From Phycisphaerae bacterium (GTDB lineage Bacteria > Planctomycetota > Phycisphaerae > SM23-33): DNA of 64,000 nucleotides. The position numbers and the translations under genes were made by a program. Below, piece after piece: positions 46,558-60,503 of the stretch (positions are counted from its first letter, which is position 1; every line of letters starts with the position of its first letter). The notes below the pieces were generated by a model that was given only the letters and a program-made list of their open reading frames with translations, had not been told where the DNA came from and ran no database searches. Location of the stretch: positions 28,128 through 92,127 of the forward strand of contig JBAZTO010000005.1 in assembly GCA_041661865.1 (NCBI GenBank). The letters run 5' to 3'.

Positions 46558-46938
46558 CTACCCCCTCTTTGCCTCACGAGAGATGGGGGCGGCGGCCAGC
46601 GTGAAGAGTACGACCTTCTCGCCGGTTATGGTGCTGATGTCGTGGTGCAGGCTTACCACCCTGGTCCCTGTGACGCCTTCAACCATGGCCTCCAGCGCCG
46701 GCCGTGCCGTCTCGGTCAACTGGGTCCGCACCTGTTTGAGCAGGTCCCGGCCCGTCTCGGGCGCGAGTTGGGCGACCAAATGCTGCTCGGCCGATGTCAG
46801 CACGCCGTGGAGACGCACCAGGAGAAGATCACCAAAGAGGTGGGCGTGGATGTCCTTGGGGCCACGGCCCATGTACTCCTGCTCAAAGCGGCTGATCCCT
46901 TCGCAGATAGCGGCTTCGATTTCGCCCTGTGTCTTCAT
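46558..46938 (-). CDS. DUF2294 (MpsC-like) family protein, paralog 1
   Basis: It is 126 aa (MKTQGEIEAAICEGISRFEQEYMGRGPKDIHAHL...). It is 85% identical to 55593..55979 and related to 58136..58594. Confidence 0.75.
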   Translation of the reverse strand: MKTQGEIEAAICEGISRFEQEYMGRGPKDIHAHLFGDLLLVRLHGVLTSAEQHLVAQLAPETGRDLLKQVRTQLTETARPALEAMVEGVTGTRVVSLHHDISTITGEKVVLFTLAAAPISREAKRG

Positions 46939-47149
46939 AGAGCACCATCGAACCTGCCGTGACTGGCGGCTTCAAGACCCGCGAGCCAACGCGCGTAACG
47001 CGTTGCTGTAGCAGCAAACAACGGCTGGCCGGCAGTCTCACGTATGTCATTCATCTTAGGAGGCGCCAAATGCGATTTCCTGAATTATCTGCTTTCGGGC
47101 GCCCACCGCGCTACAATGCCCACGTGGCGGAGCGTGCATGAATGCATGG

Positions 47150-47262
47150 GCTCCGGAGTCGGATGACTAGATAAAGGGCAGCCCGGCGCATCGGGAGGCC
47201 CGTTGACGAGTAAGCCGACGCGGTTCTTCACCTTTGGGTGTTAAGCCGCGTCGGCTTTTTTT
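47150..47262 (+). ncRNA. Candidate structured cis-regulatory RNA or small RNA, copy A, with intrinsic terminator
   Basis: It has the conserved core TCGGATGACTAGAtgAAGGGCAGCC-hairpin-GGGAGGCCCGTTGACGAGTAAGCCGACG and a terminator gccgacgcgg...ccgcgtcggc plus T8. A TACAAT -10-like hexamer lies at 47111. Confidence 0.65.
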
Positions 47263-47342
47263 TCTTGGCCGTGCAATCGACAAGTAGGAGTGAAGCTTGA
47301 CGAACCGGCAGCAGAGTAAGCTGAGTCCAGAAAGGGTAAATC

Positions 47343-47594
47343 ATGGCAAAGTTTCTGAACAGAATCATGATGGTCTTGGTGGTAGTGATGATCGCCTGCG
47401 CCTCCAGTGGCTGCAAGACCACCAAGAAAACAGAGGTCAAGGATAAGTTCTTTGGCGGCACACAGATCAAGGAAACGACCGCGACGGAACACGGCGACAA
47501 AGTCACCGTGACCGAGAAGAAGACCGACTACGACACCAAGGGCGATAAGGTCAAGACGGAGACAAAGACCACGGGCGATACAGGCTCTCCGTAA
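47343..47594 (+). CDS. Small Lys/Thr-rich lipoprotein (83 aa)
   Basis: It has the lipobox MIACASSGC and is followed by a KTTKK/TETKT low-complexity region. Confidence 0.6.
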   Translation: MAKFLNRIMMVLVVVMIACASSGCKTTKKTEVKDKFFGGTQIKETTATEHGDKVTVTEKKTDYDTKGDKVKTETKTTGDTGSP

Positions 47595-47951: not shown

Positions 47952-48115
47952 ATGGGACTGATTCTACTGATCGTGTTGATCCTGCTGCTCGTCGGTGGCC
48001 TGCCGACCTGGCCCCACAGTCGCAGCTGGGGTTATCGACCCACTGGGATTCTCGGAGTGCTGCTGGTGATCCTGGTTGTGCTGCTGATCCTCGACGTCAT
48101 CCCACGCGGATTCTG
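47952..48115 (+). CDS. DUF3309-family small membrane protein (54 aa)
   Basis: MGLILLIVLILLLVGGLPTWPHSRSWGYRPTGILGVLLVILVVLLIL matches the DUF3309 pattern (PxWP.SR.WGY.P.G). A GGAGGAG RBS precedes it. Confidence 0.6.
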
Positions 48116-48190
48116 AGCGACCCGGTGACGGTTAAGAGCCTGCTGTTCCCGCTCTTCCAGGGCCGGCTCGCCGTCATAAAAAGGACCGAC

Positions 48191-48685: not shown

Positions 48686-48714
48686 CGGGTTTCCCGGCAC
48701 ACGGAGGACCAGTG

Positions 48715-49470
48715 ATGCCATTGCGCGACATATCCAAGACGAGAAGGACTTGTTTCGCAACCGCGACGGCTCGGGGTTTCGCCCTGTGGGCGTGCTCCCT
48801 GGCTGCGATCGGCCTGGCCTCGGCCGGTTGCACGTCGTCGGGCATCTCCTCCTCCAGGCTCGACGCCCTGTTCAGGGAGGTCCAGACCCGTGGTGTGTTC
48901 GTTGGGCTGGAGGGCCTCCAGCCATTCTCGGGGTTTCGCGCGGACCAGGTGGTCGGGACCGTTGGCGACGAGTTGGGTCTGGCGCACTCCACCACGTCGG
49001 GAAACTATAGAGTCCACATGCCAATCATCGAACAGGCCAACAAGAGCGGCTGGCCGATCTATCTCCTGGGCTACAGCCTCGGCGGCGACCAGGCCCGGCT
49101 GCTGGCGGAGGCGTGCAACGAACGCGGCATCACCATCCGCATCCTGTTCCTTCTGGATCCGCACTATATGGCCGCTGACGTCCCCGGCAAGATTCCCAGG
49201 AATGTGCAACGGGTGGTCTTCTGTACGAGCCGCAGTTACGACGACGACATCGCGGTGGTTCCAACGGCTGACAATCTCGCCGACGCCAGCCGGACAGTGC
49301 TGCTTGTCGAGGATATTCCGGCCACCGGGCACATGGACCTTCCGGAGTACGTGACCCAACGAATCCGTGTAGAAATCGCCAAGGACTTACAGCAGGCCAG
49401 CGTCCCGGCGGCGCCTCCCTCGCGCCGCGTCCCTGGCGACGGCACACAGGCAAGGAGTGGAAAACGATAA
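48715..49470 (+). CDS. Alpha/beta-hydrolase-like lipoprotein (putative esterase/lipase)
   Basis: It has the lipobox LASAGCTS and the nucleophile-elbow motif GYSLGG. A GGAGGA RBS precedes it. Confidence 0.55.
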   Translation: MPLRDISKTRRTCFATATARGFALWACSLAAIGLASAGCTSSGISSSRLDALFREVQTRGVFVGLEGLQPFSGFRADQVVGTVGDELGLAHSTTSGNYRVHMPIIEQANKSGWPIYLLGYSLGGDQARLLAEACNERGITIRILFLLDPHYMAADVPGKIPRNVQRVVFCTSRSYDDDIAVVPTADNLADASRTVLLVEDIPATGHMDLPEYVTQRIRVEIAKDLQQASVPAAPPSRRVPGDGTQARSGKR

Positions 49471-49979: not shown

Positions 49980-50076
49980 CATTGGCCCAGATAGATATTT
50001 ATTCTGTATTCCATTTGATTCGGGCGTATTGGGCGCTAGGATGGGGTTTCCGCAGAGCGATAGAGCCGTTCGCACG

Positions 50077-50158
50077 CTCTGTGTCGGATGACTAGATGAA
50101 GGGTAGCCTGGCCCGGCCGGGAGGCCCGTTGGAGAGTAAACCGGCGTGGAAGGTGTCC
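50077..50158 (+). ncRNA. Candidate structured cis-regulatory RNA, copy B, without a terminator; its 3' end is the RBS of the downstream gene
   Basis: It has the same conserved core (TCGGATGACTAGATGAAGGGTAGCC-hairpin-GGGAGGCCCGTTGGAGAGTAAACCGGCG). It is followed by GGAAGG-5 nt-GTG of the DUF1570 lipoprotein. A TAGGAT -10-like hexamer lies at 50037. Confidence 0.55.
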
Positions 50159-51157
50159 GTGCGTTTGTACCTCGCAACGATCGTGGTGGCGACCGGCCTG
50201 ACCCTGGGGGGCTGCGCGCCTGATTCCCAGAGGCAGGCGCTCAATGCCACCCCTGCAAGCAACGCGCCCCCCTGTGCTGCCCTCGCCTCTCAAGTCGGCC
50301 AGACCCTCCAGGTCCACGAGACGGATAGGTTCCTTGTGCTGTCGGCCGCGAACGACGCCTCCGCGGCCGCGACCGGGCAGTTCCTGGAGCAGGCCTATCT
50401 CCGGTTTTACGAGCAGTTCACCCTGGCCGGCTTTGAGCCCAAGCCTCCACGGGACAAATTGACCTGGGTGTGCCTCAACTCCTACGGCGCCCTGGAGGCC
50501 TACGGTCGGGCTGCGGACGGCGCGGACGTGTCGTGGATGGATGCGTACTACTCGCACCGCACCAACCGTGTGGCGGCGGCCATGGCGGCCGGTCGCCCGG
50601 CGCCACAGGCAAGAGTCCGCTCATCGGGTTCCCCTGGCAAGATCGCCGCCTTCAGCGATCCGGGCGGCGGCCAGATCGCCTCCGGCAGCCTTAACATCAG
50701 GACCATCACCCACGAATTGACCCACCAGTTGGCCTTCAACACTGGACTGCAAAGGCGTGGCGTGACCTATCCCTTCTGGCTCACAGAGGGACTGGCCACG
50801 AACTTCGAGGCCGATTCCCCGAAGTCGGTCGGCCTGGGTCGACACGACAGCCGCTATGGCCCGCGACTGGTCGAGGCCAAGGCCGGCGGCAGGTTGATCT
50901 CGCTGGAACAGTTCGTTGGGATGACGGAGTGGTCCGCCGGCCAGGGGACCGCTACGCGTGATGCCTATGCGGAATCGTGGGGGTTATTCCGCTACCTGCT
51001 GGAGCGGCATCCTGTCGCTCTCAAGAAGTATATGGCCGAGATTTCATCGGTGTGGCTCCCGCCGCAGAACAGTGAGTCTCTACGCCGGCGATTCATCGCC
51101 GCTTTCGGCCCCATCAAGCCGCTGGAGGCGAACTTCCTGCGGTCCGTTGACAAGTAG
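50159..51157 (+). CDS. DUF1570-family lipoprotein with an HExxH motif (start taken as GTG at 50159; the listed ORF starts at 50096 inside the RNA element)
   Basis: It has the signal and lipobox LTLGGC, ITHELTHQ as a putative zinc-binding HExxH, and Planctomycete DUF1570-like architecture. Confidence 0.6.
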   Translation: MRLYLATIVVATGLTLGGCAPDSQRQALNATPASNAPPCAALASQVGQTLQVHETDRFLVLSAANDASAAATGQFLEQAYLRFYEQFTLAGFEPKPPRDKLTWVCLNSYGALEAYGRAADGADVSWMDAYYSHRTNRVAAAMAAGRPAPQARVRSSGSPGKIAAFSDPGGGQIASGSLNIRTITHELTHQLAFNTGLQRRGVTYPFWLTEGLATNFEADSPKSVGLGRHDSRYGPRLVEAKAGGRLISLEQFVGMTEWSAGQGTATRDAYAESWGLFRYLLERHPVALKKYMAEISSVWLPPQNSESLRRRFIAAFGPIKPLEANFLRSVDK

Positions 51158-51884: not shown

Positions 51885-52085
51885 ATGGCAAACGGCAAAG
51901 TGAAGTGGTTTAACGACACCAAGGGTTTCGGGTTCATCACGGGCGAGGACGGCACCGACGCGTTCGTGCATCATGGTGACATCCAGGGCGAAGGCTTCAA
52001 GAGCCTGGCCGAGGGTGAGTCTGTCACGTTCGATATGACCCAGGGCCCCAAGGGCCCCAAGGCCATCAACGTTCGCAAGGCATAA
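51885..52085 (+). CDS. cspA: Cold-shock protein (CspA family)
   Basis: [15 protein letters not shown] and [20 protein letters not shown] are RNP1/RNP2-like motifs. An AAGGAG RBS precedes it. Confidence 0.9.
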
Positions 52086-55592: not shown

Positions 55593-55979
55593 CTACAGTT
55601 GCTTCTTCGGCTCGCGAGAAACAGAGGGTGCGGCCAGCGTGAAGAGCACGACCTCCTCGCCGGTTACGGTGCTGATGTCATGGTGCAGGCTTACCACCTT
55701 GGCCCCGGTGATTCCGTGGATCATGGCCTCCAAGGCCGGCCTGGCGGTTTCCACCAACTGGGTCCGCACTTGCTTAAGCAGGTCGCGGCCCTTCTCGGCG
55801 GAGAGCTTGGCGACCAGATGCTGTTCGGCCGCCGTCGGGACGCCGTGGAGACGCACCAGGAGAAGATCGCCGCCAATCAGGTGGGCATGGATGTCCTTGG
55901 GACCACGGCCCATATATTCCTGTTCAAAGCGGCTGATCCCTTCGCAGATAGCCGCTTCGATCTCGCCCTGCGTCTTCAT
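55593..55979 (-). CDS. DUF2294 (MpsC-like) family protein, paralog 2
   Basis: It is near-identical to 46558..46938 over ~120 aa. A GAGGTG RBS precedes it. Confidence 0.75.
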   Translation of the reverse strand: MKTQGEIEAAICEGISRFEQEYMGRGPKDIHAHLIGGDLLLVRLHGVPTAAEQHLVAKLSAEKGRDLLKQVRTQLVETARPALEAMIHGITGAKVVSLHHDISTVTGEEVVLFTLAAPSVSREPKKQL

Positions 55980-56194
55980 AAGCACCTCAAATGCGCCGCA
56001 GTTCAAGAAACCAGAGGCAGGGAGGCACCCATCCCGATGCCCTGACAGAACAGAGACCTACATCTTTCCGGCCAGCCCGGATTCCATAGCCATGATAGCA
56101 GGCGCGGAACGCGATTTCCGGAATTAGCATATTTCGGTCACTCGCCGCGCTATGATATGACATGAGTTTAGCGGGGCGTATGCTGAAGCGTGTG

Positions 56195-56306
56195 CTCCGA
56201 ATCGGATGACTAGACGAAGGGCATCCCTGCCAAGCGGGGAGGCCTGTTGACGAGTAAGCCGATGTGGTTTTGCACCCTTGGGTGCGTAACCGCGTCGGCT
56301 TTTTTT
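56195..56306 (+). ncRNA. Candidate structured cis-regulatory RNA or small RNA, copy C, with intrinsic terminator
   Basis: It has the conserved core with ACGAAGG rather than ATGAAGG, hairpin ccctgccaagcgggg, and terminator gccgatgtgg...ccgcgtcggc plus T7. A TATGAT -10-like hexamer lies at 56151. Confidence 0.65.
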
Positions 56307-56359: not shown

Positions 56360-56494
56360 ATGAACAGGACTTGGCTCGGCGTTATCGGCGCAATTCTGGC
56401 GGTTGTTGTCCTGGCGTGGCTGCTCGGCAGCAAGATGAGCTGCCATGAGAGCTTCTGGAACAAGGACAAGCAGGTCATCGAGATTAATCGGTGA
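56360..56494 (+). CDS. Small membrane protein (44 aa, MNRTWLGVIGAILAVVVLAWLLGSKMSCHESFWNKDKQVIEINR)
   Basis: It has a single TM helix and a weak GGAGAA RBS. It lies just downstream of RNA copy C. Confidence 0.4.
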   Translation: MNRTWLGVIGAILAVVVLAWLLGSKMSCHESFWNKDKQVIEINR

Positions 56495-57714: not shown

Positions 57715-57806
57715 AAGGGTCGGAAACATTAAATTGATTAATAACCCTTTTGACCCGACTCCGCTGCCTACAATGGCACATCTGGAGATCAGGCCAAGCG
57801 AGCCGG

Positions 57807-57920
57807 CTCCGGGTCGGATGACTAGATGAAGGGCAGCCCCGTTGTGACGGGAGGCCCGTTGACGAGTAAGCCGACGTGGTTTTACACCCTTGGGTGTTCA
57901 GCCGCGTCGGCTCTTTTTTT
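57807..57920 (+). ncRNA. Candidate structured cis-regulatory RNA or small RNA, copy D, with intrinsic terminator
   Basis: It has the conserved core, hairpin cccgttgtgacggg, and terminator gccgacgtgg...ccgcgtcggc plus T7. A TTGACC-N12-TACAAT element lies at 57751-57774. Confidence 0.65.
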
Positions 57921-58135
57921 GTTTCAGGCCGGTGCGAAACGTCGCGGTGGCAAAAGACTGAAGCCTATGATCGCATATAGATTTACCATAACGCAGCAGG
58001 TCGCCCAGGCGGCTGTCGCATACCGGCGGCGGAGCGCGGGTTACGTGTGTGCGTCGGCGGCCTTGAGCGTTCAAACCTCCACAATCCTGTTTACTCGGTG
58101 GTACGGGGGCCCCGTGACCACCCATGAGGAGTCCA

Positions 58136-58594
58136 ATGGACACGTCCCAATCAAATATGGCGCAGCAGGTGGCACAGGCTGTGATGGCCTTCCAGCAGAA
58201 GATGACCGGCCATGCGCCTAAGGCGGTCACCGTGGTCCTGAGTCAGGACACTCTGGTGGTCACGCTGCACGAGGCCCTGTCGCCGGCAGAGAGAGACATG
58301 GCCAAGAGCCCCTCAGGCGCCGCGACGGTGCAGGAGTTTCACCGCCAGCTCTTCTTCAATTCCTCCCAGTCGTTGCGGGAGGAGATCAAGAGGATCACCG
58401 GCGTGGAAGTGCGGGAAGTTGTCGCGGAAGTCGAGCCTTCGACGGGGGCGATGGTGTGCGCCTTCGCGAGCGGGACCATGGTGCAGGTGTTCCAACTCGC
58501 CCAGGGCATCCCCGCGGACACCTGGAACAAGAGCGGATCAACGGATCAGCCGGGTTCCATGCGGGACAAACCGAAAGAGGCAGGTGCAAGATGA
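58136..58594 (+). CDS. DUF2294 (MpsC-like) family protein, paralog 3 (divergent)
   Basis: It shares the family core VTVVLSQDTLVVTLHEALSPAERDMAKSPSGAATVQEFHRQLF. A GAGGAG RBS precedes the ATG at 58136. Confidence 0.7.
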   Translation: MDTSQSNMAQQVAQAVMAFQQKMTGHAPKAVTVVLSQDTLVVTLHEALSPAERDMAKSPSGAATVQEFHRQLFFNSSQSLREEIKRITGVEVREVVAEVEPSTGAMVCAFASGTMVQVFQLAQGIPADTWNKSGSTDQPGSMRDKPKEAGAR

Positions 58595-60350: not shown

Positions 60351-60503
60351 ATGCTTTGGACGTTAGTCGTCATATTGCTGGTGTTGTGGCTGTTGGGAAT
60401 GATCACGTCCTACACGCTCAGCGGGTTTATCCACATCCTGCTGGTGGTGGCGCTGATCGTCGTGCTGGTGCGGGTGATCCAGGGGCGGCGGGTGATACCG
60501 TAG
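60351..60503 (+). CDS. Lmo0937-family small membrane protein (50 aa)
   Basis: MLWTLVVILLVLWLLGMITSYTLSGFIHILLVVALIVVLVRVIQGRR matches the Lmo0937 family pattern. Confidence 0.6.
   Translation: MLWTLVVILLVLWLLGMITSYTLSGFIHILLVVALIVVLVRVIQGRRVIP

Follow-up and report, generated by a model that had tools for sequence, protein, structure and literature searches.

In ON-type transcriptional riboswitches such as the pbuE/ydhL adenine riboswitch, a promoter is followed by an aptamer domain, an intrinsic terminator and the regulated gene, and the 3′ strand of the closing helix P1 is shared with the terminator. Other riboswitch classes (for example TPP, SAM, preQ1 and guanidine-I) use both terminators and SD-sequestering platforms, the latter having a recognizable anti-SD helix and recurring in many genes. 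In protein-dependent leader attenuators (ANTAR targets, RAT/BglG-LicT, PyrR and T-box), a multigene regulon carries a shared leader motif that overlaps a terminator, whereas sibling and riboswitch-derived sRNAs (for example Qrr, and SreA/SreB of Listeria) are short transcripts with strong terminators. Here we analyzed a leader-RNA element present in four copies (A to D) in a 64,000-nucleotide stretch of a Phycisphaerae bacterium contig (GCA_041661865.1, JBAZTO010000005.1, positions 28,128 to 92,127; hereafter the window). An initial annotation had noticed that copies A, C and D end in a hairpin plus poly-U terminator while copy B runs into a ribosome-binding site and the GTG start of a DUF1570 lipoprotein gene, and had interpreted this as one sensing domain coupled to a transcriptional platform in three copies and a translational platform in one, that is, as a riboswitch-type cis-regulator and not a trans-acting sRNA. 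As described below, what it had observed proved correct, coordinates included, whereas its interpretation was only partly supported.

To examine the copies, we searched the region 49980-50200 against the window by blastn and found three more copies on the + strand at 47158-47223 (82% identity), 56194-56267 (77%) and 57806-57879 (81%), which align with B over the core. A 34-nt stretch of B occurs once in the window, with 0 expected by chance. The four-way alignment revealed a shared order of features: a -10-like box (TACAAT, TATGAT or TAGGAT), a variable hairpin, the near-invariant GTCGGATGACTAGAyrAAGGG, a covarying hairpin and then GTTGrnGAGTAArCCGrCG. A terminator scan and secondary structure predictions showed a long G+C-rich hairpin followed immediately by T7-8 after A, C and D and none after B. 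Copy B reads ...GAGTAAACCGGCGTGGAAGGTGTCCGTG; it keeps ACCGGCGTGG, homologous to the 5′ half of the terminator stem, and then continues as AAGGTGTCC-GTG and an ORF. The features are listed in the table.

Table. Features of the four copies and their neighbors in the window. Entries for structural elements are predictions from sequence, and L numbers denote the loci fetched for comparison.
Feature	Position	Strand	Details
Copy B, -35-like hexamer	50015..50020	+	TTGATT; 16-nt spacer to the -10
Copy B, -10-like hexamer	50037..50042	+	TAGGAT; aligns with TACAAT/TATGAT of A, C and D; transcription start inferred near 50049
Copy B, P0	50053..50081	+	Variable 5′ hairpin (CAGAGCG...CGCTCTG); the other copies have a hairpin of different sequence at the same place
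Copy B, P1 5′ strand	50083..50087	+	GUCGG; pairs with 50141-50145 (core 50083-50145); UCGG essentially invariant in the 164 copies parsed
Copy B, J1/2	50088..50100	+	AUGACUAGAUGAA; near-invariant 5′ side of the internal loop; positions 10-12 pair with J2/1 positions 2-4; contains the non-conserved ATG at 50096
Copy B, P2 hairpin	50101..50127	+	GGGU-AG-CCUGGC...GCCGGG-AG-GCCC; 97.9% of cells paired in the 8 B-type leaders
Copy B, J2/1	50128..50140	+	GUUGGAGAGUAAA; conserved 3′ side of the internal loop
Copy B, P1 3′ strand	50141..50145	+	CCGGC; homologous to the first bases of the terminator 5′ strand (GCCGACGYGG) in A, C and D; 100% paired with the P1 5′ strand in the 8 B-type leaders
Copy B, possible SD/start-codon hairpin	50144..50162	+	GCGUGGA-AGGUG-UCCGUGC; overlaps P1 by 2 nt (G144 and C145)
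Copy B, Shine-Dalgarno	50148..50153	+	GGAAGG; GAAG invariant in the 8 orthologous leaders, GAAGG in 7 (L128 has GAAGA)
DUF1570 (PF07607) putative lipoprotein gene	50159..51157	+	GTG start; signal peptide MRLYLATIVVATGLTLGGC
Copy A, -10 box through U-tract	47112..47263	+	Core 47158-47220; T-run 47256-47263
Small lipoprotein gene	47343..47594	+	79 nt after the U-tract of A; a homologous gene follows the element in L089 and L125
Copy C, -10 box through U-tract	56151..56306	+	T-run 56300-56306
44-aa membrane-peptide ORF	56360..56494	+	TAGGAG SD; 53 nt after the U-tract of C
Copy D, -10 box through U-tract	57769..57920	+	T-run 57914-57920
MpsC/DUF2294-type gene	58124..58594	+	205 nt after the nominal end of D (about 203 nt after its U-tract at 57920); family identity from a Pfam hit on the cluster representative

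We next examined which start codon the DUF1570 gene uses, since a start at the ATG at 50096, inside the element, would have made the element coding. Although the ORF is open from this ATG, close homologs begin with V/M/L-R-x-x-L-A-(A/V)-I-V-V-A-T-G-L-x-L-G-G-C, corresponding to the GTG, and in eight orthologous loci a GTG or TTG lies 5 nt after GAAG(G/A) and gives a product of 332-342 aa. Conversely, the ATG is ATA in copy A and ACG in copy C, and an in-frame upstream ATG is absent from four of the eight orthologous leaders and displaced by 3 nt in three of the others. We therefore rejected the ATG as the start. The protein matched PF07607 with E = 1.1e-17 (65 bits against a cut-off of 22), and the L-x-G-G-C lipobox, read by eye, is conserved in orthologs.

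We then asked how widespread the element is. An exact scan of one genome per species with the 21-base core pattern TCGGATGACTAGANNAAGGGNANCC gave at least 118 loci, almost all labelled Planctomycetota (Gemmataceae, Isosphaeraceae, Pirellulaceae, Phycisphaerae and Tepidisphaerales). A core HMM built from these found 209 copies in the 128 fetched loci plus the window, with up to six copies in some stretches of 13 kb; nearly all the sequences come from MAGs. Of 202 copies not cut by a locus end, 195 have the hairpin plus U-tract. The terminator-less copies found were DUF1570 leaders (six once L126, which was mis-scored by the scan, is included), the extra upstream core of the tandem in L120, and one internally deleted copy (L054). 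A promoter layout TTGCTT-17-TAyAAT was scored upstream of 167 of 201 copies, although the scoring was biased towards that consensus. In a search of Rfam 15 at gathering scores, only two tRNAs passed in the window, and at E up to 10 copy A gave only sub-threshold, chance-level hits (mir-8303 at 21.8 bits against 90; Pxr at 19 against 80) and copy B gave none. Literature searches for the core sequence, for planctomycete sRNAs or riboswitches and for MpsC/DUF2294/CsbD leaders found no description of the element; only the unrelated yjbJ motif turned up (Narunsky et al. 2024, PMC11109978). These results suggest that the element is an apparently undescribed and very abundant leader RNA of Planctomycetota.

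To distinguish cis from trans action, we examined the neighboring genes using crude GC3-based ORF calls. In a first pass, the nearest downstream gene was on the strand of the element in 88 of 99 cases, whereas the upstream gene orientation was about random (64:51). With all terminated copies and SD-aware start selection, the downstream gene was on the same strand in 162 cases, opposite in 12 and absent within 600 nt in 21. Distances from the end of the U-tract to the start codon peaked at 40-62 nt, with a mode of 44-47; several were only 18-25 nt, and clear SDs were present. This leaves no room for a separate promoter, indicating that these genes must be transcribed through the terminator. The downstream proteins fell into a few families, namely MpsC/DUF2294 (37), DUF3309 (9), Transgly_assoc/GlsB-type (6), YflT (5), CsbD (4), DUF1328 (3), a small lipoprotein (3, including the one after window copy A), CsrA, a sigma-70-family protein and Hsp20, which are the kinds of small proteins found in general-stress regulons of other phyla. 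Together, these results, which are independent of copy B, support the notion that the family is a cis-acting attenuation leader and not a free-standing sRNA, as the initial annotation had proposed, although a secondary trans role for the short transcript is not excluded.

Without a competing terminator, the core is predicted to fold as a rod consisting of P1 (GUCGG/CCGAC), ACU/AGU pairs inside an otherwise near-invariant 9x9 internal loop (AUGACUAGA / AnGAGUAAG), a 3-bp extension and P2. In an alignment of 126 copies, the terminator and P2 showed strong covariation: 97.5% of cells were paired, 14 pairs had changes on both sides and 0 of 500 shuffles did as well. In the terminator, 98.6% of cells were paired and 7 of 10 pairs showed compensatory changes. 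The extension was supported by pair statistics, since Y:R gave U.G 96, C-G 25, U-A 33 and C.A 0, and R:Y gave G.U 95, A-U 51, G-C 12 and A.C 1. In contrast, P1 and the ACU/AGU pairs never vary, so that covariation neither supports nor contradicts them, and the first 118 loci had been selected with a pattern that fixes TCGG. A K-turn reading of GCCC-GUU-GA was rejected because those bases pair with J1/2. Three observations point to a switch in the A/C/D type: the P1 3′ strand CCGAC is the start of the terminator 5′ strand, the terminator 3′ strand repeats GUCGG, and the base of the terminator (GCCGAC...GUCGGC) is conserved in sequence across the phylum while the upper stem changes freely with compensation, for which a generic terminator has no need. 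P1 and the base of the terminator therefore exclude each other.

We next examined whether copy B is an isolated case. The terminator-less leader was present in 8 of 8 DUF1570 orthologs with at least 65% protein identity (the window, L119, L120, L125, L126, L127, L128 and L129), with two tandem cores in L120 and L128, and absent upstream of 5 of 5 homologs at 55% identity or less. One DUF1570 ortholog (P0003) had no retrievable DNA and is not among these loci, and a metagenome scan with the DUF1570 protein returned only four distant loci at about 50% identity, none with the element. Across the eight orthologs, the stretch from the core to the start codon was 81% identical on average, whereas the 70 nt upstream were 33% identical and codon positions 1, 2 and 3 were 83%, 85% and 70% identical. 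The core-to-start spacing was fixed at 73-76 nt, and the rod helices were 98-100% paired. The 67-nt B core folded better than shuffled sequences (z = -2.6), whereas the whole 146-nt B region did not (z = -0.38). These results indicate that B is a selected, lineage-specific variant. The pattern of three transcriptional copies to one translational copy did not, however, hold for the family as a whole, because among about 200 copies the terminator-less form, apart from L054, was confined to this one DUF1570 lineage.

We also searched for a translational switch in B. In the window, the minimum free energy structure of the leader contains a 7-bp hairpin that encloses part of the SD and the GUG and shares 2 nt with P1, which would give the same sign of regulation as the terminator type. 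Across the orthologs, this hairpin paired in 85.7% of cells with one compensatory change, no better than shuffled or slid controls. RNAalifold preferred a different downstream helix without covariation, and forcing or blocking P1 did not consistently change the predicted accessibility of the SD and start codon. Thus, no conserved SD-sequestering switch was found in B, and the translational platform remains a plausible inference; steric control by a putative effector bound 15 nt from the start codon, or a constitutively read-through leader kept for another reason, would be alternatives.

Together, we favor, with moderate confidence, a model in which copy B belongs to a multicopy cis-acting leader RNA found across Planctomycetota, a candidate new attenuator or orphan riboswitch class of which B is the translation-fused variant. 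In this model, a standard unit comprises a sigma-70-like promoter, a variable 5′ hairpin, the rod-shaped conserved domain and a very strong intrinsic terminator, followed about 45 nt later by the SD and start codon of a small general-stress gene. Stabilizing P1 would leave a shortened hairpin separated from the U-tract, so that anything that stabilizes the rod, either a small ligand or an RNA-binding protein, should prevent termination and turn the gene on. In the DUF1570 lineage the 3′ half of the terminator is absent, and the P1 3′ strand is followed directly by GGAAGG, 5 nt and GUG, so that the same domain sits 15 nt upstream of a start codon. The analysis establishes the anatomy, the conservation, the co-orientation and spacing, the gene set and the selection on B, whereas the ON logic, the existence and binding of any ligand or protein, sensing as such and translational control in B are inferences. 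A more far-reaching but only tentative possibility is that the rod is the aptamer of a new riboswitch class, present in many copies per genome throughout Planctomycetota, that senses a general stress signal such as an alarmone, a second messenger or an ion, and that switches on a general-stress regulon at the level of transcription elongation, and of translation in the DUF1570 lineage, in place of or on top of a dedicated stress sigma factor. Since gene regulation in Planctomycetota is largely uncharted, an element that appears to mark a large set of general-stress genes across the phylum offers a ready-made definition of a stress regulon and a well-populated candidate, with hundreds of representatives, for ligand or protein hunting. 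The DUF1570 lineage, in which the same domain is moved from a terminator to a start codon, is in addition a natural experiment that can be used to separate the sensor from the expression platform.

Among the alternatives, a protein-dependent attenuator survives best, although we consider it less likely. In this view, which differs only in the effector, an RNA-binding protein would recognize the 9x9 internal loop, stabilize P1 to give antitermination in the standard copies and, bound 15 nt from the start codon in B, modulate translation or mRNA stability. The simple rod with symmetric, purine-rich, near-invariant internal loops and tandem non-canonical pairs is a common shape for protein-binding sites; it contains AGUA opposite GAC, which, from sequence only, resembles a bulged-G (sarcin-ricin-like) module. 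The tandem cores would suit a multimeric binder, and the regulon includes RNA-binding CsrA homologs and a sigma factor. Conversely, no candidate protein was consistently adjacent, and no known protein-binding leader family in Rfam matched. A CsrA-binding sponge was dropped as the primary model, since only one invariant GGA exists, partly inside P1, and the SD in 5 of the 8 B-type leaders reads AGAAGG and lacks the GGA expected for CsrA.

It is unlikely that the copies are sibling trans-acting sRNAs that act by base-pairing or as protein sponges through exposed conserved strands, with downstream genes only passively co-transcribed and B an sRNA gene that lost its terminator and became a 5′ UTR, possibly still acting as a sponge or being processed. 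The element is multicopy, each copy has its own promoter-like signal, the very strong terminators (12-14 bp, U7-9) are equally typical of stand-alone sRNAs, and 18 nt and 12 nt of invariant sequence are single-stranded in the terminator conformation. However, the coupling to downstream genes, their coherent class, the phylum-wide conservation of the terminator base and the selection on the B leader argue against this reading, and no antisense matches were found within the 64-kb window beyond the copies themselves, although this is a weak test. That B is a non-functional remnant, a decaying copy fused with its promoter to the DUF1570 gene by a deletion or rearrangement (promoter capture) and only incidentally similar to a platform, is very unlikely because, although the terminator-less state is confined to a single gene lineage and no P1-dependent SD switch was detected, the arrangement, leader identity, spacing and rod pairing are retained in the orthologs and the HMM scores of the B-type cores are as high as those of terminated copies in the same contigs.

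Compared with sibling and riboswitch-derived sRNAs, many near-identical short transcripts with strong terminators would likewise accumulate here, but positional coupling to downstream genes is strong and no targets were identified within the window. The element resembles protein-dependent attenuators in its multigene regulon with a shared leader motif overlapping a terminator, but it matches none of these models in Rfam at E up to 10 and has no two-hexaloop hairpins and no specifier or T-box features. The yjbJ motif, a weak riboswitch candidate described as two hairpins, and not as this rod, in a paper that does not mention Planctomycetes (PMC11109978), is likewise a hairpin-plus-terminator leader upstream of a CsbD-family general-stress gene, for which the authors raise the same question of signalling molecule versus protein factor. 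As in the TPP, SAM, preQ1 and guanidine-I classes, one conserved domain is joined to a terminator in most genes and sits directly before an SD and start codon in another, except that the latter arrangement is confined here to one orthologous gene lineage without a demonstrated conserved anti-SD pairing. Finally, relative to ON-type riboswitches such as pbuE/ydhL, the predicted fold is a simple rod and not a three-way junction, P1 has no covariation, there is no match to any Rfam riboswitch and any ligand remains hypothetical, but the element shares with them the order of promoter, aptamer-like domain, intrinsic terminator and gene, a closing helix and terminator base that exclude each other, and highly conserved junction nucleotides alongside covarying stems.

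A near-palindromic motif, ATTTCC(T/G)GAATTA / TTTCCAGAA, sits directly upstream of the -35-like box of element copies A and C and of some copies elsewhere, including those in the fetched loci (numbered with the prefix L) L002, L031 and L099, whereas it is absent from copies B and D. It may be a transcription-factor site. The surroundings of copies A and C look like a segmental duplication; in both segments a minus-strand MpsC-like gene, with N-termini identical over about 31 residues, is followed divergently by a + strand element copy. These two MpsC genes themselves have no element in front of them. Other stress-type small genes, namely those for a DUF3309-like ORF, a membrane peptide and a CspA-like cold-shock gene, lie in the same 15-kb island, but none of them has an element directly upstream. 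The positions of these and the following features are collected in the table.

Positions of additional features in the window and in the fetched loci
Feature	Sequence	Position	Strand
Near-palindromic motif upstream of copy A	window	47074-47086	
Near-palindromic motif upstream of copy C	window	56113-56125	
Apparent duplicated segment with copy A	window	46558-47263	MpsC-like gene -, element +
Apparent duplicated segment with copy C	window	55593-56306	MpsC-like gene -, element +
DUF3309-like ORF, 54 aa	window	47952-48116	
Membrane peptide, 50 aa	window	60351-60503	
CspA-like cold-shock gene	window	51885-52085	
Lipoprotein with a homolog in L103	window	48712-49470	
HExxH motif of the DUF1570 protein (residues about 193-197 of the GTG-started product)	window	50735-50750	
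Second conserved leader segment, copy D	window	about 58085-58123	
Tandem cores of a DUF1570 leader	L120	5863-5991	
Tandem cores of a DUF1570 leader	L128	2118-2250	
B-type-looking core at the locus end	L103	7948-7998	
Internally deleted copy	L054	index 809-813 on the reverse complement	-
Element copy before a sigma-70-family gene	L125	3821-3753	-
Sigma-70-family gene	L125	3672-2683	-

We also noted variation in the element itself. Two DUF1570 leaders carry two complete cores in tandem with no terminator between them, and the P1 3' strand of the first core abuts the P1 5' strand of the second. A further B-type-looking core in L103 is cut by the end of the fetched stretch; because this locus also holds a homolog of a lipoprotein encoded in the window, it is probably syntenic with the window. 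The L054 copy is internally deleted, such that the 5' part of the core (TCGGATGACTAGATGAAGGGAAGCCC) is joined directly to a short hairpin plus T-run, with a DUF3309-type ORF lying about 220 nt downstream. In many loci, MpsC genes have a second conserved leader segment (CGGTGGyryGG...CCACCAGGGA) between the U-tract of the terminator and the start codon, which looks like a hairpin ending at the SD. In window copy D, this segment is separated from the terminator by about 150 extra nt.

Typical copies with typical downstream genes were also found on contigs labelled delta proteobacterium, Bacillota, Gammaproteobacteria, Alcaligenaceae, Hydrogenedentes and Verrucomicrobia (L005, L033, L037, L043, L069 and L073); either these are mis-binned planctomycete contigs or the element is wider than one phylum. 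Among the downstream genes, CsrA-family genes (PF02599) recur, starting 43 and 96 nt after the U-tract in L080 and L059, respectively, and lying about 430-480 nt downstream in L013, L040, L066 and L083. The DUF1570 protein contains an HExxH motif (ITHELTHQLAF), which suggests a metallopeptidase-like lipoprotein. In L125, a sigma-70-family gene encoding 329 aa (Sigma70_r2/r4) is preceded by an element copy, with its start 46 nt after the U-tract, and three similar cases were observed. The regulon therefore includes a sigma factor.
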